Of a stretch of DNA of 32,000 nucleotides, positions 3-24,570 are shown in pieces. The stretch's first letter is position 1; each line of letters begins with the position of its first letter. Source of the stretch: Candidatus Saccharimonadota bacterium. Lineage in GTDB: Archaea > Micrarchaeota > Micrarchaeia > Micrarchaeales > Micrarchaeaceae. The notes under the pieces were generated by a model. The model was not told the origin of the DNA. It saw only the letters and a list, made by a program, of their open reading frames with translations, and ran no database searches. The translations under genes were made by a program, and so were the position numbers. Location: positions 960,001 to 992,000 of the forward strand of contig OY970071.1 of NCBI GenBank assembly GCA_963705375.1. The letters run 5' to 3'.

Positions 3-1661
3 CTGCTGCAGGAGCGCATAGCTAGCACATGCAGCAGCGTGTCTCTGGGCAGCGTGAACGGCTGTATGCAAGCTAGTGGTACCAACGAATATTCCTTTGG
101 CTCGTACCTTGTGCAGCCGTATCAGAGCGTCCTTCAAGCTATCGCGAACATGTACCTCAACGGCAACGTAAACGGTCAGCTTGTCGGGAATTTCAGCGGC
201 ACCGGCAGTTACATTTCGATCCCGTCAATCGTGGGCATCAGCGGATCTTCAAACGCCGCAGTTTCTGCATGGATACTCATGAAGAGTCCTAGCAACAACG
301 TGGTGCTCTCTGATGCTTGGACTTCTCCTATGGTGCTGCAGATGTATGTGCACGCAAACGGCTCTCTAGAGGCAGATTTCGGGAGTGGATCCGACTGGAT
401 CATCGAAGCCGAAACATCGTCGAACACACTGTCTCCAGGCAGGTGGTATGACCTCATGGCTACCTGGCAGAGCGGCAACGGAATCTCATTATACGTAAAC
501 GGCCAACTTCAAAGCGCAAACTATCTCGTAGGCAACTCGTTGTCTGAAGGTTCGTTGGGCGTGCCTTCTATGGGGTATATCGGTTATAGCGGCCAGGGAA
601 TCGGCGGATACTTTGATGGCCTGCTTGCCAACATACAGGTCTATTCTTCGCAGCTCAACTCATCTCAGTCTCTGCAGCTCTACTACCGTGGCGTATCTGG
701 GCACCCATTAGGTGATTCAAACCTGATGGGCTGGTGGCCCCTGAACGGCACTCCGAACGACTACTCTGGAAACGACTACAACGGCACATCAACAAGCGTC
801 GCATATTTCGGCCAGACCCCCTCACCGGGGCCGTTCGCAAGCGCACTTCTTGGTGCCTTATACCCGTCAACAAACATGACGATCTTTATAAACAACAGGT
901 ATGCGCCGTCTATGCATCTTCAGTCTGCCGTCTTCAACGGCTTTGGCAGCATAGACGTTCCGAGCAGCTCGAGCCTTAACTTCATCACGCCATTCAGCGT
1001 CGAGGCATGGTTTGAGACGTCAAACTCTGGAGTGTACCAGACAATCATAAACAAAGACCTTACAGGCGAGGGCTATAACCAGAATTATCATCTTAGGGTG
1101 AACAACAACAATGTTCTGTTCGCAAGGTACGGTACTGGAGCGACTTCGTACGACATAACGGGCAACACTGTAGTGACTGATGGAAGGTGGCACCAGGCTA
1201 TCTTTGTGTGGGATGGCCAGTATGTGCATCTGTATCTTGATGGTGCGCAGGACGCAGCCCCTATAAGCGCGCAGAATTTACCGCTCACTAACACGGACCC
1301 GCTTCAAATAGGGACTTGGGCCGGGTATCTTTCTTTTAATGGCTTACTCTCCAATGTGCAGATATACGGCACAGCCCTTACGGCACCGCAGATAATGCAG
1401 CTGTATACTGAAGGTATCGATGGTGCACCTGCAGCCGGTGCAAACATGGTGGGGTGGTGGCCCCTTGACGGCAACGCAAATGACTACACAATCCACGGCA
1501 ATGGCGGTTACTCTTCAGGCGTCACGTACAGCAGCATGAACACGTATGTTCCTGTTTCATTTTCTGCATCGTCATTGGTGAGCGAAGAATCCATACCTCT
1601 GCTTCTCAATGCAAGCGGAACCGACGGCTTGTACAACGTAAGTGTGGTGATATGGCGATGA
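3..1661 (+). CDS. LamG/concanavalin-like lectin-fold repeat surface protein, 5' partial (frame open to the window edge)
   Basis: Frame 3 is open from nt 3, so the GTG at 39 in the ORF track is probably internal. There are two units of about 170 aa with LamG (Laminin_G_3-type) hallmarks: F.G.GSYI, core strands AWILMKS and EAWFETS, LYVNG and LYLDG, and endings ANIQVYSSQLNSSQSLQLYY and SNVQIYGTALTAPQIMQLYTEG. Each unit is followed by a GWWPL(N/D)G..NDY motif (nt 729-788 and 1452-1508). K/R/E/D content is very low and N-x-S/T sequons are frequent. Confidence 0.7.
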   Translation: MLQERIASTCSSVSLGSVNGCMQASGTNEYSFGSYLVQPYQSVLQAIANMYLNGNVNGQLVGNFSGTGSYISIPSIVGISGSSNAAVSAWILMKSPSNNVVLSDAWTSPMVLQMYVHANGSLEADFGSGSDWIIEAETSSNTLSPGRWYDLMATWQSGNGISLYVNGQLQSANYLVGNSLSEGSLGVPSMGYIGYSGQGIGGYFDGLLANIQVYSSQLNSSQSLQLYYRGVSGHPLGDSNLMGWWPLNGTPNDYSGNDYNGTSTSVAYFGQTPSPGPFASALLGALYPSTNMTIFINNRYAPSMHLQSAVFNGFGSIDVPSSSSLNFITPFSVEAWFETSNSGVYQTIINKDLTGEGYNQNYHLRVNNNNVLFARYGTGATSYDITGNTVVTDGRWHQAIFVWDGQYVHLYLDGAQDAAPISAQNLPLTNTDPLQIGTWAGYLSFNGLLSNVQIYGTALTAPQIMQLYTEGIDGAPAAGANMVGWWPLDGNANDYTIHGNGGYSSGVTYSSMNTYVPVSFSASSLVSEESIPLLLNASGTDGLYNVSVVIWR

Positions 1662-1771
1662 AGCTTCCGATGTGTGTTACTGGCGCTCAGAAGGGTATGC
1701 TCTTCACGCTGATCACCATAGTGCTTGTCACTCTCATGCTTGCGATCGTGATGACATATTTATTGCTGAAC
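1652..1771 (+). other. Class III (type IV prepilin-like) signal peptide candidate, or an uncleaved signal anchor
   Basis: A short charged n-region ends in QKG and is followed directly by MLFTLITIVLV.... This resembles the archaeal (K/R)G|hydrophobic site and the bacterial G|FTLIE prepilin site. The h-region of about 24 aa is too long for a typical cleavable Sec signal. Confidence 0.45.
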
Positions 1772-4414
1772 ATAAACTACGACAACCAGGCGTCTCGGGC
1801 CTACGGTGTCCTTGGCACCGACAATTTTGCAAGCTTGATACAAAGCGCAATGCCATCGCTGCTGGCCACCAGCCTGCAGAATGCACAGCATGCGTATCTA
1901 TCCGAAAACCTTGTGGAATGGTTGCCTCTTAGTGGTAACGCCAACGACTACAGCCGCAACGGCAACGACGGCGCTTCGACCAATGTGATATATGTGCCTA
2001 CTGCTACCGCGCAAGTAGCTGGCTTCGACGGTGTGGGTAGTTATATCAACTTAGGCAACACTGCGAAGTTGGATTTCGCCAGTAACAGTTTCACAGTCCT
2101 CGCATGGGTGTATCCAAAAACCCCAATCAATACATACGGTTCTTACGGACAGGTGCTTGCAAGAACCACTAGTGGTGGTGAAGGGTACGAGTTTGGCTGG
2201 TTTGGAAATTCGGATTGTACTGTGCTGTATGCAACCAACGGTCCAACGACTATCTACAGCAGTAACACTATATGCAAAGACGGCTGGGCATCAATCGGGC
2301 TGACGTCTAGTGGCGGCACTTCGACATTTTATATAAATGGTGCACAGGCTGGAAGCGGATTGATAAATTATCCTTCAGAGGCTTCAACAAATACAGGAAT
2401 AGGCAGGGCGCCAGACAGGGCTTCCCCATCTCTAGACTTCAATGGTCTCATCACTGATATTCAGATATACAACACCTCCCTATCAACAAACCAAATGGCA
2501 AGCGTGTATGTGGAAGGTATGCATGGTGCTCCAGTGACTCCTGTAGACTCTGCTATCTTGTTTCCAATAAATGCATCTGCTTCAGAAGCGCTATCCTCTC
2601 TTCTATCAGGCACGCCGTCAATATCTGGCACTTCCCTTAGCGATTACGTGGCTGCTCTGCAGAAGCAATCGCTCGTGCGCAACGTCCATCTCACAATAAC
2701 AAATCAGAGTGTGGACGTGTTCCAAACATCTCCTCTGTGGCTTAACATAACGTATTCTGCGCTTGCCTCCGTCAATTCAACGTTCGGTGCAGTTTTGTAC
2801 CCTCTGCATTCAAGTGTGGCGTTGCCTGTGGCCGTAGCATACTCTAACATAAGCCTCAGCAACACGGGGAGTGCAAGCTTCGACGGCTCGAGCAGCTACA
2901 TCGACATCGGAAATGTGCCGGAGATAAGTTCTTCATCGACATCATGGACCATATCCTTCTGGATGAACTCTGGAAGTGTAGCTAATTACAAGAACGCACT
3001 CGATGCAAATTTCGTTCCTTCAGGAAACAATGCCGGCCCAAGGTTCGAACAGAGTGGCCCATCCATTTTTTCACTGGCAATCGGCACCGATCAGGGCGAC
3101 TCCAATGGTTACACATACACTGATTCGCTTATTCCGAATACGTGGTACTATGTGGTTGCGATACGGTCTGGAGACGCTGTGGTTGGCTATCTCAACGGTG
3201 TCGAAGTGTTCAACAGCCCTAACACCTTGTGGCCTTCCGGCTTCACGAACCTCACAATAGGAAAGGGTGGGGAAGATTTACCTAATAGGTGGTTCATTGG
3301 CAACATCACGAATATCCAGACCTACTGCGCTGTGCTTTCTGCAAGCCAGATTGCGAGCATGTATGCTGCAGGTACAGGCGGCAGCCCGCAGCAATACGGG
3401 CTTGCTGGCTGGTGGCCTCTTGACGGTAACGCCAACGATTATTCAGGCAACGGCAACAATGGCGCGGCTTATGATGTGGCGTATTCCTCATCAAACGTGC
3501 CAGGGCAGTTCCAGCAGATGCTGGCTTTCAACGCGTCGCAGTATTCTGCCTACGAGCGCGTAGACCTCGGAAACGTGCGTTTCTATCATAACGACGTCCC
3601 GCTTTACAGCTGGTGCGAATCCGGGTGCACCAACGCTAGTACGGCAAGCGTGTTATGGGTGAAGCTGCCAGACGGCATTCGGGCCTTCTCCAACACTGTG
3701 ATGACAATGGCATTCTTGCCAAAGTATGTGGGATATGATTCCGGTATCGGTGCGCATGCCGGAGAGGCGCCGCAGCTGAGCCCGATATATGGCCAGTATG
3801 ACAACGGCGCAAGCGTATTCACATTCTATGACAACTTCCAATCCGGTGATAGTAGGTGGACCATCTATCAAGGCGGTGGCTCAAGTTATTCTTTCAATAA
3901 CGGACTGTCTATAACTTCTGGTGTGTCATCGGGCATGGAGCTCTACGCAAGGGCGTCACAGAACCCTTCAATTGTTGAATCTCTGATAACCAATGGACAG
4001 GGAACAAACCTTGGCACTGCAATCGGATGGTCTACTGTTGCACCATCATCCAATGGTGACTTAAATACTGGCTACTGGATAGACAATGGATTTTCTTCAG
4101 CATATTCTGCAAGAATAATAGGCATCGCTGGTGGGTCCCTGACTTATGCCCCTTCGACAGCATACACTTTCCCTGCAACCTGCGTTATAAGCTTCAGTTG
4201 GCCTTCGACAGGTTCGGAAAACTTTCTTCTTAACTTCAGTCCGATAATGGCTGGCACCGATACCAGTATAGGCTGGTCAACTGCGCATGTTTTCATACAG
4301 CAGAGCTCTGGTGATACTGCAACGTCAACATACCAATGGGTCCGTACGCGCGTCAACCCTCCGAACGGCATCATGCCTACCACAAGCTTCGGCGACGTAG
4401 TTCGGCTTGTTTGA
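1652..4414 (+). CDS. Large (920 aa) secreted LamG-repeat protein with a class III (prepilin-like) signal candidate and a DUF2341-like module; candidate giant pilin or adhesin
   Basis: The start overlaps the upstream stop: ATG 1652 gives a 10-nt overlap, and the alternative ATG 1658 gives an ATGA overlap. The N-terminus is MAMKLPMCVTGAQKG followed by the 24-residue hydrophobic stretch MLFTLITIVLVTLMLAIVMTYLLL. Two LamG units lie at about nt 1916-2520 and 2870-3385. The segment NVRFYHNDVPLYSWCESGCTNASTASVLWVKLPDGIRAFSNTVMTMAFLPKY (about nt 3518-3740) resembles DUF2341. The C-terminus looks like a jelly-roll domain. Confidence 0.75.
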   Translation: MAMKLPMCVTGAQKGMLFTLITIVLVTLMLAIVMTYLLLNINYDNQASRAYGVLGTDNFASLIQSAMPSLLATSLQNAQHAYLSENLVEWLPLSGNANDYSRNGNDGASTNVIYVPTATAQVAGFDGVGSYINLGNTAKLDFASNSFTVLAWVYPKTPINTYGSYGQVLARTTSGGEGYEFGWFGNSDCTVLYATNGPTTIYSSNTICKDGWASIGLTSSGGTSTFYINGAQAGSGLINYPSEASTNTGIGRAPDRASPSLDFNGLITDIQIYNTSLSTNQMASVYVEGMHGAPVTPVDSAILFPINASASEALSSLLSGTPSISGTSLSDYVAALQKQSLVRNVHLTITNQSVDVFQTSPLWLNITYSALASVNSTFGAVLYPLHSSVALPVAVAYSNISLSNTGSASFDGSSSYIDIGNVPEISSSSTSWTISFWMNSGSVANYKNALDANFVPSGNNAGPRFEQSGPSIFSLAIGTDQGDSNGYTYTDSLIPNTWYYVVAIRSGDAVVGYLNGVEVFNSPNTLWPSGFTNLTIGKGGEDLPNRWFIGNITNIQTYCAVLSASQIASMYAAGTGGSPQQYGLAGWWPLDGNANDYSGNGNNGAAYDVAYSSSNVPGQFQQMLAFNASQYSAYERVDLGNVRFYHNDVPLYSWCESGCTNASTASVLWVKLPDGIRAFSNTVMTMAFLPKYVGYDSGIGAHAGEAPQLSPIYGQYDNGASVFTFYDNFQSGDSRWTIYQGGGSSYSFNNGLSITSGVSSGMELYARASQNPSIVESLITNGQGTNLGTAIGWSTVAPSSNGDLNTGYWIDNGFSSAYSARIIGIAGGSLTYAPSTAYTFPATCVISFSWPSTGSENFLLNFSPIMAGTDTSIGWSTAHVFIQQSSGDTATSTYQWVRTRVNPPNGIMPTTSFGDVVRLV

Positions 4415-4537: not shown

Positions 4538-5521
4538 TCAGACGAGGCTGGCGAACATACCTGCAATCACATGCTGCATCACTAAGAAGAGCACGATGCC
4601 TATCGCCACAAACACTGGCAGTAATCTTATTCCCTTCACCGCAGATCCTGAAGATATTGCCGACATGATGAGGCTGGCGAAGCCCGTTATGACTACAATC
4701 GCAGCTAGCGAGAATTCATAATAGACGCCCGGGGTTATCTTCGGAGGACTGGGCTTCAGGAAAGACATTCCCATGCTCGGCATGCCTGCCGGGTTTGCCG
4801 TGAGTATGCCTTTCCATATTGTGTCGGTCACTACAATCATCTGGCTGGTGAGCCCGTATAGCAGCGGAGCAGCTATCAGTGCTGCGAACGCTATAAATAT
4901 ACTGTACAGTAACAGCTGGCCGCTTATCTCCTTCTGGACTATCGCATTGTTCCTCATGTTTTTCGCTATCTGCTCTATAAGGTCTGCCATGGCGCCGCCG
5001 TAGCGCAGCGCCTCAATCATCATTCGAACAGCATGATTCATCTCTGCAGAACGGTATCTGTTAGAGAGCTCCCTGAGTGCGCTCTCGAAATTCTCGCCGC
5101 TGTATATGCGCTTGTTCATTTCCTTGATCTCATCGCTCAAGAAGCTGAACTCTGGCCTTGCAGAAAGCAGAAGCGCTCTGTCAAGCGCTATTCCGCTGCG
5201 CAGGTTAGCGGATGCAATTTGAAAGAAATCCGGCAGCATCTCCTCTAGTTGCGTCTTCCGGTTTTCTATTCTATACTCCATGAACATGTAGATCAAGGCG
5301 ATAAAGACCACGCCAGCCGCAAGCCCGGCAACACCTGCTATGGGTGCGTAGAACTTCAGTACGATGACGCCGACAAATATCATTAGGATAAACATGACGA
5401 AGAAGCCAATTATCGCTATTCTCAAGAGGTTCTCGACCGTAATCTTCATGCCTGCAAGGTCGAGCTCGTGCGATACCCTTCTCGCCACGCCCCTGCTTAC
5501 AAGCATCTCGAATCTCACCAT
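4538..5521 (-). CDS. Type IV filament platform protein, single T2SSF domain (FlaJ/PilC/TadC-like), second of two
   Basis: A polytopic membrane protein whose cytoplasmic T2SSF-like block is LPDFFQIASANLRSGIALDRALLLSA...ALRELSNRY...MIEALRYGGAMADLIEQIA. ATG 5521 lies 4 nt after the upstream stop. The ORF-track start at 5551 is a GTG that overlaps the upstream gene. Confidence 0.75.
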   Translation of the reverse strand: MVRFEMLVSRGVARRVSHELDLAGMKITVENLLRIAIIGFFVMFILMIFVGVIVLKFYAPIAGVAGLAAGVVFIALIYMFMEYRIENRKTQLEEMLPDFFQIASANLRSGIALDRALLLSARPEFSFLSDEIKEMNKRIYSGENFESALRELSNRYRSAEMNHAVRMMIEALRYGGAMADLIEQIAKNMRNNAIVQKEISGQLLLYSIFIAFAALIAAPLLYGLTSQMIVVTDTIWKGILTANPAGMPSMGMSFLKPSPPKITPGVYYEFSLAAIVVITGFASLIMSAISSGSAVKGIRLLPVFVAIGIVLFLVMQHVIAGMFASLV

Positions 5522-5525
5522 TCGA

Positions 5526-6590
5526 TCACATCGAATATACGGGTCTTGCACTCGTTATCATGTTCATGAAAATGAACTGCAGGACTATCATGCCAACAAG
5601 TACGAATCCGAGCACAGAGTCCGTGACTGTAAATACTGCTATGAATGTTGTCAATATGGTGATCACTGCTATGCCCATGCTGGGCACTATTATTCCGAAC
5701 AGCATATAGAACATCGCTATCGCATTCAGTTTCTGGCCGTAACTTCTCAGTTCGATTATGCGCTCTTGCGACAGCTGGTCTATCACGCTCTGCAGGGCAT
5801 CGACGACATTGGCGCCTGCCTTTATGCTGGTCGAAGCCTGCAGCATCATGTGCTTGAACGCGGGGCTCTTCGTCTCAGTTGCCGTCTGGTCTATCGCATC
5901 CTCTAGAGGCAGACCTAATTGCACTCTTTCCACTACCTTGGCAAACTCCTTGCTTGCCTCGGCATAGCCCGTGCTGACCGATGCTATCGAATTGTACAGC
6001 GGCATGCCGGACCTGAGCGAGATTATCATGTCCCTGGCTGCAGAGAGAATGTCCCTTTCTATGTTCTTCGATGCCGCTTTGGCGCGCTGTGCAGGATAGT
6101 TTATGAACACGCCAAACGAAACGTAATATGATGCTGCGCCTACGATGATGCCAAGTATCAGGTCCTCCACTATCGGAAGCCCTACGTTATAGAGCAGGAA
6201 TGTGGTCGATATCAGGAGCACGGCCGCAAGCATCGCCGCAGCCATCATCATGCGCTGCAGGAATTCGTGCACGCTCTGGCGCACTCCCTGCTCCCTGAGT
6301 GACTGGTCGAGCCCCTTTTGCTTCGCTTCGATCCTTTCAAGATAAAGGTAAATGGCTCCAGGTTTCTTTATTTGGCGTATTTCCGCCTTCGCCGCATATC
6401 CTTGCTTCTGCTCCGGAGATGCGCCTGCTGCACCTGGCATGCGCCGTTGTTCTGCACGTGGCGGGTCTGGATCGTTCGTTACTGGCCTACTTTGCTTCCC
6501 GAACATTCCGGAAAGCGTCGTGGGCTTCGGGTCAAGCTCTATGCGCTTGCCGTCAACTTCTATCACTCTTTTGTTCTTCTCAAACATCAT
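5526..6590 (-). CDS. Type IV filament platform protein, single T2SSF domain (FlaJ/PilC/TadB-like), first of two, with a cytoplasmic N-terminal extension of about 120 aa
   Basis: The T2SSF-like block is ILSAARDMIISLRSGMPLYNSIASVS...VVERVQLGLPLEDAIDQTA...ASTSIKAGANVVDALQSVIDQL, flanked by TM helices. The preferred start is ATG 6590 (MMFEKNK), which forms an ATGA overlap with the upstream stop. The ORF track extends the ORF to 6638. Confidence 0.75.
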   Translation of the reverse strand: MMFEKNKRVIEVDGKRIELDPKPTTLSGMFGKQSRPVTNDPDPPRAEQRRMPGAAGASPEQKQGYAAKAEIRQIKKPGAIYLYLERIEAKQKGLDQSLREQGVRQSVHEFLQRMMMAAAMLAAVLLISTTFLLYNVGLPIVEDLILGIIVGAASYYVSFGVFINYPAQRAKAASKNIERDILSAARDMIISLRSGMPLYNSIASVSTGYAEASKEFAKVVERVQLGLPLEDAIDQTATETKSPAFKHMMLQASTSIKAGANVVDALQSVIDQLSQERIIELRSYGQKLNAIAMFYMLFGIIVPSMGIAVITILTTFIAVFTVTDSVLGFVLVGMIVLQFIFMNMITSARPVYSM

Positions 6591-7255
6591 TTCACCAGCG
6601 CAAGCGCCTCGGACAGGCGTTGCTCCCTGACAGCCCACATCTCCTTCTCAGAACCCTGAAGCTCGACATTGCCCTTCTGTATCGTTGCCCTTTCCTTTGC
6701 TATTTCTATCTGGAGCCCTCGAAGCTCCTGCGTCAGGACAGTGAGTTGATCATTGTCGAATATTTTACCACGAATTCCCTCTATTATCTTCTCAAGCTCA
6801 GGAACCTGTTCCGCCATCGGAAGGTTGGGCAGCACGAGGTCTTTCATGTTGATGCTCATCTGGGCCTCTTCTATTGTGGGTCCTGTCTTCAATGCGCCCG
6901 TTACTTCGGCTAGCTCCTGTTTCGCCTTTTCTTTGAGCCTCGCATGCTCTGCTTCGTACGCAGGTGGGGCGAATGCCTGTACTTGTGCAGCGGCTGCTGC
7001 AGGCGCAGGCTTCACAGTCGGTGCTGCTGTGGTCTCAAGCCGTATGTGCTCTTTCTCTTCCTTTGGCTTGTGAGGTGTCTCAAATGAGGCTCTTTCTATC
7101 TGATCTAGCAATTGTCCGTAACCCGCGCCGCGCACGTTGACATTTCCGGCAGTAACATTCGTGATGTTTACTGTGCTCTGAGTTTTGACGCTGGCGCCGC
7201 TCTCGATAGACGTGACAAGCTTTACCAGGTCGTCGTACGAAGTCATAATTGCCAC
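6587..7255 (-). CDS. Hypothetical protein (222 aa) between the ATPase and the platform genes
   Basis: The GTG start overlaps the ATPase TAG stop by 1 nt (TAGTG), and its stop overlaps the next start (ATGA). The protein has no TM segment and no P-loop. A central Ala/Pro-rich linker (TAAPTVKPAPAAAAAQVQAFAPPAY) is followed by a predicted helical C-terminal half. I recognise no family. Confidence 0.55.
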   Translation of the reverse strand: MAIMTSYDDLVKLVTSIESGASVKTQSTVNITNVTAGNVNVRGAGYGQLLDQIERASFETPHKPKEEKEHIRLETTAAPTVKPAPAAAAAQVQAFAPPAYEAEHARLKEKAKQELAEVTGALKTGPTIEEAQMSINMKDLVLPNLPMAEQVPELEKIIEGIRGKIFDNDQLTVLTQELRGLQIEIAKERATIQKGNVELQGSEKEMWAVREQRLSEALALVK

Positions 7256-8097
7256 TAGAGTATATCCTTCGTGAACTTTACGTTGTTGTCCACGATGTCC
7301 ATTACCTTTGTTCTGTTCTTGTAATAGTTAGCGACGACAGAACCGGCATCGTCAACATCCAGCACGTTGTTGGCGACCATCCAGTTGAGCACCTTTATCT
7401 TCTCCTGCACGTCCATCGCTATCTCTTTCCTAGATAGGCCTCCATAGAGCATCAGCTGCTCTGCCAGCCTTGTCATGTCTGCTATCTGCGCGAACCTGCC
7501 GTCAGAGAGGTTCCACCTGTACAGCACGTTAACATCTCCTGTCCTCATTACCTCTCCGAATTCGAGCACGCGCCTTATGCCTTTCATCCGGTGTCTGAAC
7601 AACACGATCATAGCTCCCAGAGCATTCATCAGCACTTTTGGCACGTTGATTGGCGGGTTTGTCATCCTTATTATCGTGTCCTGCGCATTATCTGCGTGCA
7701 CAGTGCCGTACACTGCGTGGCCTGTGTGTATCGCTTCGAAGAGTGTTTCTGCATCTTTCTCAGTTCTGATCTCTCCGACCAGCACTATGTCTGGCCTCTG
7801 CCTTAGTGCGTTTATCATGAGGTTGTAGAGCGTGACCTCTCCCTTTCCTTCAGGGTTTGGCAGCCTGGATACCATCGGTATCCATTGCAGGAAGCTCGGC
7901 AGGGTGAGCTCTCGAGTGCCTTCTATCGATATTATTCTCCTGTTAGCCGGGAAGAATATGCTCGTTGCGTTGAGGAAACTCGTCTTACCGCTAGCTGTGC
8001 CTCCCGAGAACAGCATGCTCATCTCGTTCTGTATGCACAGCCATGTAAGTGCCGCAATCTCGGGGCTCACCGTGCCGTTCTTTATGAGCATCGTCAT
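7255..8097 (-). CDS. FlaI/PilB/GspE-family secretion ATPase, C-terminal (ATPase domain) fragment
   Basis: Walker A is GGTASGKTSFLNA and Walker B/Asp box is RPDIVLVGEIRTEKDAETLFEAIHTGHAVYGTVHA. Upstream of its ATG the same frame still encodes the conserved ...SQSGNTITIRKFSKNPWT. Confidence 0.85.
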   Translation of the reverse strand: MTMLIKNGTVSPEIAALTWLCIQNEMSMLFSGGTASGKTSFLNATSIFFPANRRIISIEGTRELTLPSFLQWIPMVSRLPNPEGKGEVTLYNLMINALRQRPDIVLVGEIRTEKDAETLFEAIHTGHAVYGTVHADNAQDTIIRMTNPPINVPKVLMNALGAMIVLFRHRMKGIRRVLEFGEVMRTGDVNVLYRWNLSDGRFAQIADMTRLAEQLMLYGGLSRKEIAMDVQEKIKVLNWMVANNVLDVDDAGSVVANYYKNRTKVMDIVDNNVKFTKDIL

Positions 8098-8752
8098 GGT
8101 CCACGGGTTCTTCGAAAACTTTCTTATAGTGATCGTGTTGCCTGATTGCGATATCGGGATATAGCGTAGCGTTGACTCTGGAACCGTCAGACAGTTCCGC
8201 GTCCATGAGAGGTTCGAGGTTGGATATCTGTTTGCCTATCCTTCTTCCTATCTGCTCTGCCTGGTCGTATATCATCTCCTCGCTCGCCGGTTTTATGTTT
8301 GTCTTGCACCAGCCGCGCACCTTGTGGAAGACCCAAATATCGCTCTTGGATCCGTTCACTGCTATCTCTTCAAGGTTCTCGTCTGCTAATGGCGCTTCGA
8401 GCTCTCCCAGGCCGAGCATTATGTTGAGTATGTATGCCACAAGGAGCTTCTTCACTACGGGACGCGTGCCGGGCACGTACTTGTCTATGAGCAGTTCGCT
8501 GGCGTCTATGTACCTCTTGTTCAACTCTTCCGCATACTCCTTGTCCTCTATTCGCGTCGGGTCTATCGCCACCATCAATGCAAGCTCACGCCTGAACGAC
8601 ATAAGCAGCAGTTTCGTCGCGTCTCCTATGCCTTGGAAGCCCACATGGTACGCTAGTGCGAAGTCGGAAGTCTTCAGTATCTGCACGGTGACCTGCATCC
8701 CGTGCGCATCCAGCTGGTATGATTCAAGCACTTCTTGTTCTTCTTTCGCCAA
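7991..8752 (-). CDS. FlaI/PilB/GspE-family secretion ATPase, N-terminal domain fragment ending in an out-of-frame tail
   Basis: Conserved stretches are ...LGELEAPLADENLEEIAVNG...DIWVFH...EPLMDAELSDGSRVNATLYPDI, after which the sequence becomes nonsense (AIRQHDHYKKVF...). The TTG start lies 4 nt after the upstream stop and is preceded by GTGATC (SD-like). The fragment overlaps ORF 7255-8097 in another frame. Confidence 0.8.
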   Translation of the reverse strand: MAKEEQEVLESYQLDAHGMQVTVQILKTSDFALAYHVGFQGIGDATKLLLMSFRRELALMVAIDPTRIEDKEYAEELNKRYIDASELLIDKYVPGTRPVVKKLLVAYILNIMLGLGELEAPLADENLEEIAVNGSKSDIWVFHKVRGWCKTNIKPASEEMIYDQAEQIGRRIGKQISNLEPLMDAELSDGSRVNATLYPDIAIRQHDHYKKVFEEPVDHDDAHKERHGEPRDCGTYMAVHTERDEHAVLGRHS

Positions 8753-8756
8753 GCGA

Positions 8757-10049
8757 TCACTTGCCCTCGTTGAACTTGTTCTCTGTATCTTTTATAGATT
8801 TCTTTATGCCAGACAACTTCTCATCAGTCTTATCTACCTTCTTCTCGATCTCCGTAGTTATGTTCATGCGCTGTTCAAGCGTGACTGTCATGGCCGCGAA
8901 CGCCTGCAGGCTCTTCTGCAGATCTGAAACGCTGGCCCTCGACTCTTCTATCTCTTTGTTTATGGTTTCGATGCTCTTCTTTGCATCGTGCAGAGTGCTG
9001 TCCACTTTAACCACATCACCGAATGCCATCTTGAGGTCGTTGAGCTTGCCGAGCACATCTTTGGAGTTCTGATCCAGCAGCTCGGTGCTGGCTTTCATGC
9101 TCTCCTCTATCTTCTCGTACCTGTCCGTGAACTGGACCCTTGCGGTGGTGAGCGTCCTTTTGGTGCGGTCCATGTCCTTCTTGAAGTTCTTTAGCTGCTC
9201 CACGAGTGCCTTTGACTCGCTGCCCTGGTTTTTGAGCTTGCTGAGGTTACGTGATACGCTGGCGCTGCTCGTGCCCATCTGAGCATCGACTTCTTTCTTC
9301 TTTGCAGCGATCTGCTTCTTGAGATCCGCAACTTGATCGTCGACATCATCCAACAAAGAATCGAACACCCTGTCTTTGGCGCTGGACAGGCTGACGAGTG
9401 CATCATATGCCTCTTTTGCATTCTTTATTGCGTCCTGTGCCTCCCCAGTGCCCGTTGTAACTGCGGTCACGCCCTTGCCTTGCCCTGCGGTCACTTCCGT
9501 GTTGCTGAGCGTTTCGATCTTCGAGTACAACTCATCGATATTCTTGTTGACGCTCTGGTATGAGTCCTCTGCGGTTCTCTTTATGCGTTCAACTGTTCTG
9601 CCCTGCTCTATTATGCTGTCATAAAGCGTGTTTATCTGCATCAGCATCTGCTGAACAGCAGGCATCCTTTGCTGGTATATGCGCTCAAGGCTTGACACTT
9701 CTGTGCTCAGGTTGCTTATCTCTGCGGCAAACTTTTCTATTTCTGTGCGCTGAGTCACGACCTTCTCTTCGACAAGCCCTCTCTTGACCTCCATCCTCGA
9801 TTCTACGAGCTTTACCTGTTCTGCGCTAACGGTGATAGGTGCGACATTCATCCTTCCGACTTCATAGCTTATCCTGACCATGCCTCCCGTTTCCAGCACT
9901 TTGGACCAGTTCTCCACTATCGACGGCGCAATTCCCAGTGTCGATGCTATCTCGCTAACATCCATCTTTCCCTTGGCTTGGAGCAGCTCCATCAAAGCGT
10001 CTATAGTAGTTCTGGCTTCGGCGCTTTCCTCGGGTTTTTCTGCCGGCAT
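8757..10049 (-). CDS. Winged-helix (wHTH-like) N-terminal domain plus a long coiled-coil protein; first gene of the filament operon
   Basis: The N-terminal segment IDALMELLQAKGKMDVSEIASTLGIAPSIVENWSKVLETGGMVRISYEVGRMNVAP has a helix-turn-helix plus wing pattern. The remaining roughly 350 aa are heptad-like and K/E/Q/S-rich, with no TM segment. A TATA candidate lies upstream. Confidence 0.65.
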   Translation of the reverse strand: MPAEKPEESAEARTTIDALMELLQAKGKMDVSEIASTLGIAPSIVENWSKVLETGGMVRISYEVGRMNVAPITVSAEQVKLVESRMEVKRGLVEEKVVTQRTEIEKFAAEISNLSTEVSSLERIYQQRMPAVQQMLMQINTLYDSIIEQGRTVERIKRTAEDSYQSVNKNIDELYSKIETLSNTEVTAGQGKGVTAVTTGTGEAQDAIKNAKEAYDALVSLSSAKDRVFDSLLDDVDDQVADLKKQIAAKKKEVDAQMGTSSASVSRNLSKLKNQGSESKALVEQLKNFKKDMDRTKRTLTTARVQFTDRYEKIEESMKASTELLDQNSKDVLGKLNDLKMAFGDVVKVDSTLHDAKKSIETINKEIEESRASVSDLQKSLQAFAAMTVTLEQRMNITTEIEKKVDKTDEKLSGIKKSIKDTENKFNEGK

Positions 10050-10139: not shown

Positions 10140-11282
10140 TCAGCCGCGTTCTCCTTTTGCGACCTTCCTGGCAAGCGCATCAAAGCCCCTAAAGAACTTC
10201 TCCCAGCTGTAAGCTTGCTCGACTCTGCGCCTGCCCTGCCTTCCCATGTCTTCCGCGACGCTCCTATGCTCTGCCAGGAACAGCATGCGTTTTGCCATCT
10301 CGCTTGGCGAGTTAATGAGGAATCCTGTCTTGCCGTCCAGGACCGTTTCCTTCGGACCGCCCTCGTTGACCGAGATGACGGGCTTGAAGCTGGCCATCGC
10401 CTCAAGAGGCACGATGCCGAAGTCCTCGTTGATAGGTGCGAACAGCAATGCCGTGCAATTCGCATAGAGCTCTTTGACCTGTGCGTCGCTAGGGTTCAGG
10501 ACGAACTCCACGTTCTTCGCATGCATGCTTTTCAACGAGCCGTAGTACTCTTCAGAGCTGCGATATCTCTTGGAGAGCGTGCCTGACAGTATGAGCTTGT
10601 AGCTCTTGTCCTTTGACTGGACTAGGAACTGCCTGAACGCGTCGATCACATACTCCTGTCTTTTCATCCTGTCTATTCTTGAATGGTAGATGAAGTACTT
10701 GCTATCGCCATCATTCCTGAAGCCTTTACAATCAACACCCGGGCTTACGACTGTGCCTTTTCTGTCCAGGTATTTTATTATTCTTATATTCGTGTTTTCG
10801 CTGTTTGTCGCTATGCCTTCTATTTTCTTAACAATGCCGCGCTCTATGCGCTTGTAGAAGAGCGACAGTGCATCATACGCAATTCTCTCGTGCAAAGGCC
10901 TCTTTCTTACCGTGCCGATTGTCGGATCGAATATCTCCCTTGGTGGCGTGTGCACATACCACAGCACACGCTCGTTCTTGTTCCTCGACCACTCGCTCGG
11001 AGACATGTGCGCGTTTATGACATCGTAGTCTTCTTTTATCTTGAGTTTGAGGAAGTTCGTGCCATAGTGCACGCCGTTGGCTATGACCTGCGGCATCACT
11101 CCATTGAACACGCCTCTTTTTGCGAAGACCTCCACATCCAACGCCTTGAACCCTTCGAACGTTGCATTGCTTTCATAACCAAGGGTGTATATTTTCGCAT
11201 CGTAGTGCTGCGCTATTTTCAGTATGACGCGCTCAGCACCACCTCGCTCGTTCAGATTATGCTGGAGTATGAGCAGCTTCAT
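10140..11282 (-). CDS. Glycosyltransferase, GT4 (GT-B fold) family
   Basis: The N-terminus MKLLILQHNLNERGGAERV is typical. The C-terminal E-x7-E motif is EDFGIVPLEAM and is followed by GGPKETVLDGKTGFL. Confidence 0.85.
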   Translation of the reverse strand: MKLLILQHNLNERGGAERVILKIAQHYDAKIYTLGYESNATFEGFKALDVEVFAKRGVFNGVMPQVIANGVHYGTNFLKLKIKEDYDVINAHMSPSEWSRNKNERVLWYVHTPPREIFDPTIGTVRKRPLHERIAYDALSLFYKRIERGIVKKIEGIATNSENTNIRIIKYLDRKGTVVSPGVDCKGFRNDGDSKYFIYHSRIDRMKRQEYVIDAFRQFLVQSKDKSYKLILSGTLSKRYRSSEEYYGSLKSMHAKNVEFVLNPSDAQVKELYANCTALLFAPINEDFGIVPLEAMASFKPVISVNEGGPKETVLDGKTGFLINSPSEMAKRMLFLAEHRSVAEDMGRQGRRRVEQAYSWEKFFRGFDALARKVAKGERG

Positions 11283-11291
11283 GCACGCACC

Positions 11292-12815
11292 TCAATCATG
11301 GGCACCATCAACACCAAAATACCTGAACACCAGAGGTGCGATTCCACAGACATTCATCTCTTTCTTGCTATACTTGCTCAGAATCCCGTCATTGCCGAGC
11401 ATGCCAAATATTCCGTGCATAGTGTGGTCTCCGCTCTTCGCAAGCTCTGGCTTCATTATGTCGCTGTGCAGAGAGTAATTGAACACGTCTATGGTGTATC
11501 CTGGCTTTGCCTCTACAAGAAGGTCTGGCGTTATGATGCTGTTCAGCCCGCGGTAGTATGCGCTGCCATCGACCACCCTGCTTATGAGGCTATCGCCTTC
11601 TGGCGACCGTATCTGTTTCAGCGATTTCTCCACTTGTGCTTTCAGCCTGGCCCTCTCTCCTATGCTTACATTCGGGTTTGAGAAACGCCTGTCGTTTATG
11701 AATATGGTGCCGACAGGATTGTTGGATACCGATGCAAAAGCCCTTGTGTTGTCCATGTCGAAGTCGAAATCGTGTATCCGTGTGTAGCCCGCCCCAGAGG
11801 CACCAGAGAGTACCATGCCTGCGGTGCTCGCGATCACACTCTTCACCTTTCCAGGCATCTTGTTGTACACGCGCCTGAGCCCGCTCTTGAAGAGCATCTC
11901 TCTTATCGTATACTTTATGCTGCCTGTTCCGTGCTCACTGCTCTTCATCGATTCTATTATCTGGTCTTTCAGCTTCGCATATCCGTTGTTGATGAGCCAT
12001 GCGTTGATGAGGAACTTGCCCTTTATCTGCTGCGATCCGTGGTCTGAGAAGAGCACCACCGTGCATTCGTCTTCAGAACTTGCGACATACGATTCCAGCC
12101 ATTCCAGGAATTCCGACACCTTTTTGTAGAGCGGCGTGAGCAGAGTCTCCCAGTTCTTTACGGGAAGATAGTGCTGCATGCGGTCCGTTTCAGAGAAGCA
12201 CACCAGAACAAAGTCGTAATCGTTGCGTTCCAACATGCGTCTTGTGAACCGTGCCCTGCCTTCGATGCTCTTTGCATACATCTCTGAACCTTTTTCAACG
12301 GACAATGTGCCCGCTTTCAAAACTCCCTCTATTTCTGGTTCTCCTGAAAAGTCCGCTTTCTTCGCCTCTGCCTTTAATGTGCTTGAGCTGAACTTTGACT
12401 TAAGGGGCCAACCAGTCATCATGTCAACGTTCTTCTTCGTGCTCAGGTTGGTTATCATGACAGGGTTGACTACAAGGCTTTTCAGCCCTTTGTCTGAGAG
12501 CACATCCCATAATGGCGGGTGCTTGTCGGTATCAAGGAAGAGCAGGTCTTCTTTCTCGTAGTTACTGCCGATCGACAGGAAGTCTATCACTCCATGCTCC
12601 CTCGGCTCTAGGCCTGTATATATGCTTGGCCAGGCCGGCCCACTGAGCGGAGGCAAAGTGGACTCTATCTCCTTCAGGAAGCCTTTCTCAAAGAATGCAT
12701 TGAACCCTTTCATGCCGTATTTTCTTGACAGATGCTTCACTATCCACAGAGGTGCAGAATCCACACCGACCATGTAGAGTTTCTTTCGTGTCAATGAATC
12801 ATTTCTACTTATCAT
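11292..12815 (-). CDS. Alkaline-phosphatase superfamily protein (type I phosphodiesterase/nucleotide pyrophosphatase-like)
   Basis: Motifs are KKLYMVGVDSAP (metal-binding Asp), PPLSGPAWPSIYTGLEPREHGV (nucleophile region) and VLFSDHGS. It lies 9 nt upstream of the GT4 gene on the same strand. Confidence 0.7.
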   Translation of the reverse strand: MISRNDSLTRKKLYMVGVDSAPLWIVKHLSRKYGMKGFNAFFEKGFLKEIESTLPPLSGPAWPSIYTGLEPREHGVIDFLSIGSNYEKEDLLFLDTDKHPPLWDVLSDKGLKSLVVNPVMITNLSTKKNVDMMTGWPLKSKFSSSTLKAEAKKADFSGEPEIEGVLKAGTLSVEKGSEMYAKSIEGRARFTRRMLERNDYDFVLVCFSETDRMQHYLPVKNWETLLTPLYKKVSEFLEWLESYVASSEDECTVVLFSDHGSQQIKGKFLINAWLINNGYAKLKDQIIESMKSSEHGTGSIKYTIREMLFKSGLRRVYNKMPGKVKSVIASTAGMVLSGASGAGYTRIHDFDFDMDNTRAFASVSNNPVGTIFINDRRFSNPNVSIGERARLKAQVEKSLKQIRSPEGDSLISRVVDGSAYYRGLNSIITPDLLVEAKPGYTIDVFNYSLHSDIMKPELAKSGDHTMHGIFGMLGNDGILSKYSKKEMNVCGIAPLVFRYFGVDGAHD

Positions 12816-22592: not shown

Positions 22593-22681
22593 AGCCCCAG
22601 GAGGGAATTGAACCCACAACCTACTGCTTTATGGTCTGTTTCCGTTACCATGCAGTCGCTCTGCCACTGAGCTACTGGGGC
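22593..22681 (-). tRNA. tRNA-Thr (anticodon GGU) with a 17-nt intron at the canonical 37/38 position
   Basis: The minus strand reads GCCCCAG-TA-GCTC-AGTGGCA-GAGC-G-ACTGC-[AT GGT A | ACGGAAACAGACCATAA | A]-GCAGT-AGGTT-GTGGG-TTCAATT-CCCTC-CTGGGGC-T. The acceptor, D and anticodon stems all pair. The T-stem has one U-U mismatch. No CCA is encoded. Confidence 0.85.
22629..22645 (-). other. tRNA intron (bulge-helix-bulge-like)
   Basis: The intron segment ACCAT pairs with the anticodon-loop segment ATGGT. This leaves an AAA bulge before the 3' exon and an A-rich bulge at the 5' splice site. The exact cut sites are ambiguous by 1-2 nt because of repeated A residues. Confidence 0.7.
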
Positions 22682-24477: not shown

Positions 24478-24570
24478 AGTACCACATACACTAAACGACA
24501 ACACAAAAGAAATAACTTTCTTATCTAGGTGCCAATGTCCTTTGCCATATGGAAATGCCAAAGGATAAAT

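Follow-up and report, generated by a model that had tools for sequence, protein, structure and literature searches.

How a protein of 920 residues that is rich in lectin-type modules could be built into a pilus is the question raised by gene D, found in a 32,000-nucleotide stretch of Micrarchaeon DNA (hereafter, the window). An earlier note on this DNA had described the open reading frame, which is present as stated (Table 1), and had proposed that it encodes an adhesive pilin of very large size, or else a tip or minor subunit. All computational tests that were run agree with this proposal. With a probability of about 0.68, we consider gene D to encode a modular type IV pilin-like protein, likely belonging to a minor-pilin or tip complex. 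Computation supports the pilin reading well but does not prove it.

Table 1. Features of the gene D locus, with positions in the window.
Feature	Position	Strand	Remarks
Gene C, C-terminal 552 aa	3..1661	+	N-terminus beyond the left edge of the window; ORF open from base 3
Gene D	1652..4414	+	920-aa LamG-bearing pilin-like protein with class III signal; basis: ORF, domains, family, synteny
Predicted class III (prepilin-type) leader	1652..1696	+	aa 1-15, MAMKLPMCVTGAQKG; predicted cut after G15
Long N-terminal helix, alpha1-like	1697..1903	+	aa 16-84; AlphaFold2 helix and hydropathy
LamG1 cassette	1904..2539	+	aa 85-296, Pfam core 126-281; inserted at end of long helix, hypervariable
N-domain second half	2540..2839	+	aa 297-396; two short helices, three-stranded antiparallel sheet
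LamG2	2840..3406	+	aa 397-585, Pfam core 411-568
DUF2341-like module	3512..3871	+	aa 621-740; sub-threshold in gene D, matched in relatives
Variable C-terminal tail	3872..4411	+	aa 741-920; ends in conserved W.R.R..PPNG.MP motif
TadC/FlaJ-like platform protein 1 (T2SSF)	4538..5551	-	Pfam T2SSF E 8e-16; 14/14 loci
TadC/FlaJ-like platform protein 2 (T2SSF)	5526..6638	-	Pfam T2SSF E 1e-17; 14/14 loci
Conserved 222-aa cluster protein	6587..7255	-	no recognised domain
FlaI/VirB11-type assembly ATPase	7255..8752	-	Pfam T2SSE and NCBIfam FlaI; two frames
Winged-helix N-terminus and long coiled-coil protein	8757..10049	-	weak HTH and coiled-coil matches

The reading frames of gene D (from its ATG) and of gene C, the LamG gene upstream (to its TGA), overlap by 10 nucleotides, and the two genes are co-transcribed. 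Since an identical overlap recurs in four other loci (L001, L005, L007 and L008) and the leader of the orthologue P0002 is equal in length to that of gene D, the start at 1652 is supported. The protein is poor in Lys (1.1%) and Glu (1.8%), abundant in S, T, N and G, and contains 11 N-glycosylation sequons, a composition consistent with an extracellular protein.

Hydropathy analysis revealed a single hydrophobic segment, at the N-terminus, which reads MAMKLPMCVTGAQKG|MLFTLITIVLVTLMLAIVMTYLLL (leader, then mature start). K14 (position -2) and G15 (-1) directly precede a 25-residue hydrophobic stretch, amino acids 16-40, which we infer to form a membrane or filament-core segment. In archaeal class III signals, position -1 is G, A or S, position -2 is charged and the processing site lies ahead of the H-domain (PMC4371748). 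The gene D N-terminus has all of these features and they are conserved family-wide, which bears out the class III-like N-terminus with a KG junction proposed earlier. An exhaustive search with an HMM of the N-domain retrieved 328 clusters at E <= 1e-3 (155 at E <= 1e-30), so that the family comprises at least 328 sequence clusters. In each of the best 150 of the 328 matches the N-domain spans residues 1 to about 215; these proteins are mostly 850-1400 aa long, with some shorter fragments. Among family members at <=50% identity (n=162), 150 have a [KR][GA] junction immediately ahead of the hydrophobic stretch, while the leaders range in length from 3 to 27 residues; the junction is thus not due to chance. 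Position -2 is K in 87% and R in 12% of the family (99% together) and position -1 is G in 72% and A in 27% (also 99%), while T or S occupies +4 in 99% and L occupies +13 in 94%. M+14 and Y/F+21, which lie deep inside the helix, also show strong conservation. Gene D itself has Met at +1, a residue found there in just 3% of the family.

The half of the N-domain that follows LamG1 (amino acids 297-396), with its VFQTSPLWLNITY motif, is conserved across the 328 clusters. The full-length AlphaFold model of the protein was poor (pLDDT 44.5), with low confidence across the tail. AlphaFold2 was run on the N-domain with LamG1 excised and a 68-sequence alignment, yielding a model with pLDDT 81.9 and pTM 0.68. 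This model contains a 73-residue helix (residues 13-85, pLDDT 84-98), helices 93-106 and 116-129, and three 14-residue strands at 133-147, 150-163 and 166-179 (pLDDT 81-95; past the LamG1 site, 212 must be added to obtain real residue numbers). The modelled arrangement, helix then sheet, resembles that of pilins. Since the long helix measures ca. 110 A and the strands ca. 45 A, its hydrophobic N-terminal part must protrude, judging from these lengths. A Foldseek search with the N-domain model retrieved no solved pilin or other structure at E <= 1e-3, the N-domain sequence profile found no relative in the PDB, and, at E values up to 10, no Pfam or NCBIfam profile for archaeal pilins or class III signals matched the N-termini of gene D and its partners A, B and C, described below.

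The two LamG units claimed for the protein are both significant Laminin_G_3 matches in Pfam (LamG1, E 1.4e-20; LamG2, E 1.4e-16). When the LamG1 segment is taken out, the protein aligns end-to-end with insert-less relatives; LamG1 is thus an insertion inside the pilin-like module and not a C-terminal addition. LamG2 is missing from the orthologue P0004. The claimed DUF2341-like segment is borne out only in part: 6 of 13 aligned relatives match DUF2341 at E <= 0.01 (best 1.2e-6), whereas gene D scores 18.2-21.7 bits, below the Pfam gathering score of 23.4. Its motifs LGN[IV]RFY, LYSWCESGC, AGEAPQLS and YDNGA.VF are invariant columns of the alignment. A jelly-roll-like C-terminus, which had also been proposed, was not recovered in the poorly modelled tail, which has no Pfam match and no similarity to the LamG profile in hhalign (probability 0.4%). 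Identity to P0002 is 79% in leader and helix, 37% in LamG1, 70% in the remaining N-domain, 69% in LamG2, 74% in the DUF2341-like module and 30% in the tail, which shows 25-30% identity among orthologues. The protein is thus a mosaic, its scaffold conserved and its LamG1 and C-terminal tail strongly variable between orthologues. LamG cassettes are common to gene D and its A- and C-type paralogues: the C-type protein P0053 has a LamG that shares 51% identity with LamG1, and the A-type proteins P0006 and P0007 have one that shares 53% identity with LamG2.

Gene D is the fourth member of a conserved set of class III-type genes, A-B-C-D, followed by genes for a FlaI-like ATPase and two TadC-like proteins. 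This order was found in 14/14 loci, which are all those with enough flanking sequence; nearly all A-B-C-D loci come from Micrarchaeota MAGs. In the window, gene D is convergent with the two T2SSF genes and the T2SSE/FlaI-like ATPase. The partners have class III-type N-termini, ..KG|QIALEF in A, ..KA|QFWSFD in B and MKG|FVFTIDA in C, and all four proteins except B are very large. The product of gene C in the window is a LamG protein, belongs to the MKG|F.FT.DA class and has two Pfam LamG matches; in tblastn, the N-termini of C-type proteins match positions 6-161, and a C-terminal YNVSVVIWR motif is shared. A gene of 210-237 aa occupies the position of the 222-aa protein in six loci, and the winged-helix/coiled-coil gene, which closes the machinery operon, keeps its position in orthologous loci. 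The four-gene set, the nature of LamG1 as an insertion and a frameshift in the ATPase of this locus (see below) are absent from the earlier note.

Our verdict is that the gene D product is the archaeal counterpart of the "modular minor pilin" of bacteria. In bacteria, modular pilins that bear a ConA-like lectin module occupy a tip complex (PMC9934059, PMC8179133). Like one of them, PilC of the Streptococcus sanguinis PilA-B-C tip complex, the gene D protein joins a class III-type leader, a short pilin-like module and a module of the ConA/LamG superfamily (PMC9934059, PMC8179133), is encoded with other putative minor pilins beside assembly genes, and has too much bulk to fit in the filament shaft. 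Unlike PilC (roughly 53 kDa), it has a signal of archaeal type, with a charged residue at -2 and neither Glu5 nor the IPR012902/PF07963 N-methylation motif, and ca. 905 mature residues with two LamG domains and a DUF2341-like module; one LamG lies inside the pilin-like module, whereas the PilC module is grafted C-terminally. The A-D set may further be analogous to the bacterial HIJK minor pilins, in that it too comprises four distinct pilin-like genes whose order is fixed (PMC9934059, PMC8179133). As with GspK, the bulky HIJK cap, the D protein is large, carries an extra domain inserted into its pilin module and lacks an acidic residue near the mature N-terminus, which its partners have (E+5 in A, D+6 in B and C). 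Unlike in the HIJK set, three of the A-D proteins are giant, most D family members carry Glu at +17 (73%; gene D does not), and no sequence or Foldseek similarity was found.

The machinery, one ATPase and two TadC/PilC-like genes, is like that of the Methanococcus maripaludis Epd pili (EpdL; EpdJ and EpdK), which also have the minor pilins EpdA-D and the peptidase EppA (PMC4371748). EppA, a second archaeal prepilin peptidase, requires Gln at +1, and its validated substrates are cut at KG|QI (PMC4371748). The A-type site resembles these substrates, partners A and B having Gln at +1 and A also Glu at +5; Met at +1 makes gene D a poor fit to an EppA-type peptidase. Epd pilins, unlike D, are small. 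In the Micrarchaeon Mia14, LamG genes are linked to type IV pilus loci, one of which was placed by Golyshina et al. in the Methanococci/Thermococci group, and a FlaK-like peptidase was noted (PMC5498576). TafC, the tip subunit of haloarchaeal Tat-fimbriae, is also an archaeal filament-tip protein with LamG, but it relies on the Tat pathway for export and on donor-strand exchange for assembly, with no class III signal or type IV pilus machinery (PMC11821415). It is the sole NCBIfam match of gene D, over the LamG part only (52.7 bits, cut-off 410). No characterised archaeal prepilin-LamG fusion was found in the literature searched, in agreement with the earlier note.

Large class III proteins are known in archaea, e.g., the subunits of the Sulfolobus bindosome, which are assembled at the surface by machinery of the type IV pilus type (PMC4371748). 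The A-D proteins, of which A, C and D are very large, could likewise be class III-processed and handled by the ATPase and TadC proteins to form a short stalk or surface patch displaying LamG, with neither a long filament nor a separate major pilin. Indeed, gene B is the only small class III ORF, and there is no other small major-pilin gene in or near the cluster. This says little, however, because the Methanococcus major pilin EpdE is encoded apart from the epd locus (PMC4371748). Thin filaments, possibly pili, occur on a cultivated Micrarchaeon (PMC11329633), and pili-like fibres connect ARMAN and Thermoplasmatales cells (PMC4110969). Moreover, unlike the solute-binding proteins of the bindosome, gene D has no substrate-binding-protein homology and combines lectin-type LamG with a conserved pilin-like N-domain of ca. 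200 residues, and its locus ATPase reaches only 78 bits against the NCBIfam BasE cut-off of 1000. We regard a bindosome- or pseudopilus-like assembly as unlikely.

Still less probable, in our estimate, is an uncleaved signal anchor, i.e., a type II membrane adhesin whose N-terminal helix tethers the LamG protein independently of pilus genes. In its favour, positive residues ahead of a transmembrane helix are expected in any N-in anchor, pilin HMM and structure searches gave no match, and no prepilin peptidase gene is encoded in the window or was seen in 86 related loci by a crude motif scan. An anchor would, however, leave unexplained the near-invariant G/A at -1, the conserved deep-helix positions (T+4, L+13, M+14 and Y/F+21), the presence of the ATPase and both TadC genes alongside in all 14 loci with enough flank and the EppA- or PibD-type motifs of the three partners. 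It could also be that the family is pilin-like and the locus is decaying here, its ATPase being broken into two frames where a CCC run (8156-8158) holds a single additional base (frame change placed at 8156/8157 by tblastn against intact orthologues of 480-532 aa). If real, this frameshift would mean that the machinery is broken in this organism. Homopolymer indels are common assembly errors, both ATPase halves are 60-73% identical to the orthologues with no other damage, and gene D and the remaining cluster genes are intact; we hold a decaying locus to be very doubtful.

According to the preferred reading, a modular pilin-like protein, the N-terminus of the gene D preprotein would insert into the membrane and a prepilin (class III) peptidase would cleave behind Gly15 at the cytoplasmic face, leaving the mature protein held by the hydrophobic start of its long helix. 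The FlaI-like ATPase and the two TadC-like platform proteins would then extract it, and it would be assembled with the pilin-like partners A, B and C, encoded just upstream. Because the mature protein carries bulky LamG1, LamG2 and DUF2341-like modules, a minor-pilin or tip complex is its most likely place, rather than the repeating shaft. There it would display variable lectin-type modules, through which it may bind glycans or attach to a host cell or some other surface. Micrarchaeota are tiny symbiotic archaea. Being one of four pilin-like genes that constantly adjoin a pilus-assembly motor, gene D is a good candidate for one of their host-attachment subunits.

Gene D is present as an ORF encoding the 920-residue, LamG-bearing pilin-like protein. 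There is a 10-nt overlap between its ATG and the end of the preceding gene with its stop codon, an identical overlap is found at the orthologous junction in four other loci (L001, L005, L007 and L008), and the leader is of the same length as that of P0002, the closest orthologue. The start codon can therefore be considered sound. The protein begins with MAMKLPMCVTGAQKG, followed by MLFTLITIVLVTLMLAIVMTYLLL, the latter being the only hydrophobic segment of the whole protein.

Positions of gene D, its domains and other features (window coordinates)
Feature	Position	Strand	Remark
Gene C, C-terminal 552 residues	3-1661	+	continues beyond the left window edge
Gene D	1652-4414	+	920 residues
LamG1 of D	1904-2539	+	Laminin_G_3 at aa 126-281 (E 1.4e-20)
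LamG2 of D	2840-3406	+	Laminin_G_3 at aa 411-568 (E 1.4e-16)
FlaI-like ATPase	7255-8752	-	two overlapping ORFs
CCC run with one extra base in the ATPase	8156-8158	-	GGG on the + strand
GT4 glycosyltransferase and alkaline-phosphatase-superfamily (Phosphodiest) genes	10140-12815	-	
tRNA gene	22593-22681	-	89 nt, Rfam 56.5 bits
2268-aa LamG protein	24529-31335	+	Laminin_G_3 E 2e-47

The two LamG domains reported in the earlier note were recovered by the Pfam search, Laminin_G_3 (PF13385) matching two stretches of D with 113.9 bits against a gathering threshold of 27.6. The DUF2341 module (PF10102) proposed there falls just short of recognition in D, which scores 18.2 bits over its full length and 21.7 bits when its C-terminal part is searched, both below the threshold of 23.4 bits. 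Since DUF2341 is matched (E <= 0.01) by the homologous modules in 6 out of 13 relatives in the alignment, the module of D can be regarded as a diverged member. Modules of this type, with LYSWCESGC and AGEAPQLS motifs, are found in many other Micrarchaeota loci with no pilus genes nearby (among L011-L086 of the loci fetched for neighbourhood comparison), and some proteins (e.g., P0011 and P0026) carry several copies. Judging from these sequences, it is a predicted surface-protein module widely reused across Micrarchaeota. A jelly-roll C-terminus had also been suggested for D. However, residues 741-920 have no Pfam match, and hhalign pairs this tail with the LamG profile at a probability of 0.4%, which does not support a further LamG/jelly-roll domain. 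Assignment of D as a TafC fimbrial protein (NCBIfam NF052521) was rejected as well, the score being 52.7 bits against an equivalog cut-off of 410 and confined to the LamG part. A sequence search of the PDB with D returned just one weak LamG match, 4qvs (E 0.006).

The position of LamG1 became clear from comparison with relatives such as P0009 and P0033. A VFQ[TS]SP...Y motif located at about residue 150 in these proteins is found at about residue 356 in D, and without its residues 85-296 (LamG1 plus the leader strand), D aligns end-to-end with the first ~215 residues of relatives of this type. It follows that LamG1 is an insertion into a domain of ~200 residues, referred to below as the N-domain. 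A global full-length MAFFT alignment had set the VFQTSP region against LamG1; the N-domain alignment was prepared with LamG1 excised and the relatives truncated. The AlphaFold2 model of full-length D (13-sequence alignment; pLDDT 44.5) was poor beyond the LamG cores and, being unusable there, was kept out of the fold search. The model of the excised N-domain (68 aligned sequences) reached a pLDDT of 81.9 and a pTM of 0.68.

In the latter model, a helix spanning residues 13-85 is followed by two 14-residue helices and a three-stranded antiparallel sheet, i.e., by the order of elements that characterizes the pilin fold, a long N-terminal helix and then an antiparallel sheet. LamG1 is inserted between residues 84 and 85, where the long helix ends. 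The variable alpha-beta loop of classical pilins sits at the equivalent place. The modelled helix measures ~110 A, of which about half at most can be covered by the remainder of the domain; by these lengths, the hydrophobic first 25-30 residues must project from the predicted fold as they do in pilins. A Foldseek search of the PDB with the N-domain model gave nothing at E <= 0.001 (the best match, at 0.023, was an unrelated protein), and the N-domain sequence profile found no relative in the PDB. As modelled, the N-domain is thus pilin-like in topology only.

Archaeal class III signals are processed before the hydrophobic domain, with G, A or S at position -1; a charged residue at -2 is important specifically in archaea, and an acidic residue at +5 is present in only some archaeal pilins (PMC4371748). 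In D, K14 and G15 occupy positions -2 and -1 and are directly followed by a hydrophobic stretch of 25 residues. Since motifs in a single sequence are weak evidence, the family was examined. A first homologue search with D yielded 46 proteins, those bearing names being from Micrarchaeota, and in ~36 of them a [KR][GASL] junction directly precedes a long hydrophobic stretch. A word-indexed search with the N-domain profile returned 3 fragments only, and an exhaustive profile search was used instead; it retrieved 328 clusters (50%-identity representatives) at E <= 1e-3, 155 of them at E <= 1e-30. In every one of the best 150 matches listed, mainly proteins of 850-1400 residues with some shorter fragments, the N-domain match begins at the protein N-terminus.

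The junction could be placed in 150 out of 162 members of the D family; the 12 exceptions are evidently for the most part truncated gene calls, with a few K-L or K-M junctions. Among these 150 members, position -2 is K (87%) or R (12%), position -1 is G (72%) or A (27%; 99% together) and position +1 is Q, I, V, L, F or M. Conservation extends deep into the helix, with T or S at +4 (99%), L at +13 (94%), M at +14 (84%) and Y or F at +21 (92%). Leaders are 3 to 27 residues long, with a median net charge of +3. The prepilin-like N-terminus that the earlier note had read from D is thus supported by a family-wide junction. The predicted mature helix carries Glu at +17 in 73% of the family and Ile in D and its subfamily; in bacterial pilins, the glutamate is at position 5.

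Such a leader could also belong to a simple signal anchor, i.e., D could be an uncleaved membrane tether, and a plain anchor would account for the positive charges before the helix. It would, however, leave unexplained both the invariant small residue at -1 and the conservation deep in the helix, and it fits poorly with the family-wide conservation taken together with the synteny described below. Pfam and NCBIfam scans of the N-termini of D and of its partners A, B and C revealed no class III or archaeal pilin profile at E up to 10. A scan of the window and 86 loci for a prepilin peptidase (GxGD[VIALF][KR], sought in ORFs having four or more hydrophobic segments) gave no candidate, though a motif scan this crude is weak negative evidence; one FlaK-like peptidase is reported for the Micrarchaeon Mia14 (PMC5498576).

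Gene neighbourhoods of five relatives were inspected, and the 86 fetched loci were surveyed by tblastn. Many of the latter are unrelated to pili, since the contig scan was seeded on DUF2341-like motifs from the alignment of full-length relatives. A single invariant cluster emerged from the two: three pilin-like genes (A, B and C), then D, then machinery genes. The latter are convergent with D and comprise, in order, two T2SSF (TadC/FlaJ-like) genes, a conserved gene for a 222-aa protein, a T2SSE ATPase gene whose best NCBIfam match is FlaI, and a winged-helix/coiled-coil gene. The whole set was found in 14 out of 14 loci with sufficient flank, the window included, nearly all from Micrarchaeota MAGs. 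In the window, the ATPase gene is split by a single extra base. Its orthologues are intact (480-532 aa). The frame change reflects either an assembly error or very recent inactivation, and we favour the former because the two halves show good conservation apart from this base.

Gene A products are multi-LamG proteins of ~900-1400 aa with the N-terminus ..[KR][GS]|QIALEF (the bar marks the predicted cleavage site), gene B products are ~180-217 aa long and begin with ..KA|QFWSFD, and gene C products (400-730 aa, often with a PQQ propeller and LamG) begin with MKG|FVFTIDA; the D family has ..[KR][GA]|.L[LMF]T. These are four distinct and conserved N-termini of predicted class III type. Near its C-terminus, the gene C fragment in the window has a conserved motif, YNVSVV[IV]W[RH], in common with C-type proteins at other loci, and its orthologues begin with MKG|F.FT.DA. 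Genes for a GT4 glycosyltransferase and a Phosphodiest protein follow the pilus machinery both in the window and in the orthologous contig of P0003; they could be linked to the cluster, e.g., through glycosylation.

Identity between D and P0002 is distributed unevenly. It amounts to 79% in the leader plus helix, 70% in the rest of the N-domain, 69% in LamG2, 89% in the linker and 74% in the DUF2341-like region, with 37% in LamG1 and 30% in the tail. LamG1 is closer to the LamG of the C-type protein P0053 (51%) than to LamG1 of the orthologues (~35%); LamG2 is 53% identical to a LamG of the A-type proteins P0006 and P0007 and is missing from the orthologue P0004. LamG cassettes thus appear to have been exchanged among A, C and D paralogues, and a mosaic of this kind is what one expects when a conserved carrier bears exchangeable, putatively binding modules. 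Proteins of ~290 residues (P0056, P0059-P0067 and P0071) were also found, with the N-terminus [KR][AS]|QSAMEYLMTYGWAIL or [KR][AS]|QSAMEYLMTYGWAILIIAVVL. This is followed by a linker that contains Cys, by one LamG and by a C-terminal tail with the conserved pattern ..SW.SGYT.P. These proteins resemble LamG pilins of small size, and fusions of class III-type N-termini with LamG can therefore be considered common in these archaea.

The window holds a second giant LamG surface protein, of 2268 aa, with a Sec-type N-terminal signal region in place of a class III N-terminus, LamG near each end and, at the C-terminus, a hydrophobic anchor with basic residues behind it (..AAIVVFIIAFQRKKIMKTSL). The 89-nt tRNA gene, for which ARAGORN gives no sensible anticodon, probably contains an intron; tRNA introns are common in archaea. 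From their translations, the tyrosyl- and aspartyl-tRNA synthetase genes are of archaeal type and the S-adenosylmethionine synthetase gene archaeal, and we take the window to be archaeal.

Fusions of prepilins with LamG are indeed known in bacteria, as the earlier note had it: the bacterial LamG match P0088 carries the N-methylation motif PF07963. D combines a pilin-like N-domain with two Laminin_G_3 domains, a module not specific to pili, which would make it a modular pilin by the definition of Raynaud et al. (2021); the signature by which that survey itself searched, the bacterial N-terminal methylation motif (IPR012902/PF07963), has no match in D. By analogy, the closest characterized counterpart would be PilC of S. 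sanguinis, a pilin with a ConA-like lectin module that forms a tip complex with PilA and PilB (PMC9934059). In GspK, a bulky protein without Glu5, the pilin module is interrupted by an inserted domain (PMC8179133, PMC9934059). The acidic residue that A, B and C carry at +5 or +6 is missing from D too, and the A-B-C-D set recalls the four HIJK minor pilins. We infer this parallel from organization, with no sequence similarity behind it. The A motif is very similar to those of validated EppA substrates, which have KG|QI and Glu at +5 (PMC4371748), and, as here (T2SSE and two T2SSF genes, 14 out of 14 loci), the Epd locus has one ATPase and two PilC-like genes. Each of the seven A- and B-type N-termini inspected carries Gln at +1, the residue that EppA requires, with the exception of one A-type whose start is truncated. 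In contrast, D has Met at this position, and Gln is found in 36% of the D family.

D is best read as a pilin-like subunit of modular build that bears lectin-type domains, either a minor pilin or a tip pilin, and that the neighbouring machinery would assemble along with A, B and C. Its chief competitor is a short, bindosome-like surface assembly that forms no filament. It gains from the fact that gene B is the only possible major pilin in the cluster.

Micrarchaeota, like other DPANN archaea, spend their lives bound to archaeal hosts, and the molecules by which they find and hold the host are, to our knowledge, largely unknown. A DPANN genome paper covering Nanohaloarchaeota and Undinarchaeota reported type IV pilus machinery with "no pilins annotated" (PMC9563170), and the thin filaments and pili-like fibres revealed by cryo-tomography (PMC11329633, PMC4110969) are of unknown composition. 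In excerpts of Golyshina et al. (PMC5498576), expanded LamG genes of Mia14 are reported, "some linked to type IV pili loci", with no explanation and with no class III signals described on the LamG proteins. A census of archaeal type IV pili does not mention LamG (PMC4858521), archaea do not figure in the modular pilin survey, which relied on a bacterial signature (PMC8179133), and the literature searched held no description of the A-B-C-D set or of archaeal LamG pilins.

We tentatively propose, with a probability of roughly three in ten, that A-B-C-D is a Micrarchaeota host-recognition organelle, an independently arisen counterpart of the bacterial four-minor-pilin tip complex, in which giant subunits bear exchangeable LamG cassettes that set host or surface specificity. 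If so, the "missing pilins" of type IV pilus loci in DPANN archaea would be encoded by these genes, which would also explain in molecular terms the pili-like fibres observed to link ARMAN cells with their hosts. The modular pilin idea, surveyed so far with a bacterial signature alone, would extend to archaea, with D as a variant whose added module is placed inside the pilin module. The finding is of interest because the giant LamG proteins, if they are subunits with class III signals encoded in a conserved set of four genes, would be concrete, testable candidates for DPANN host attachment.
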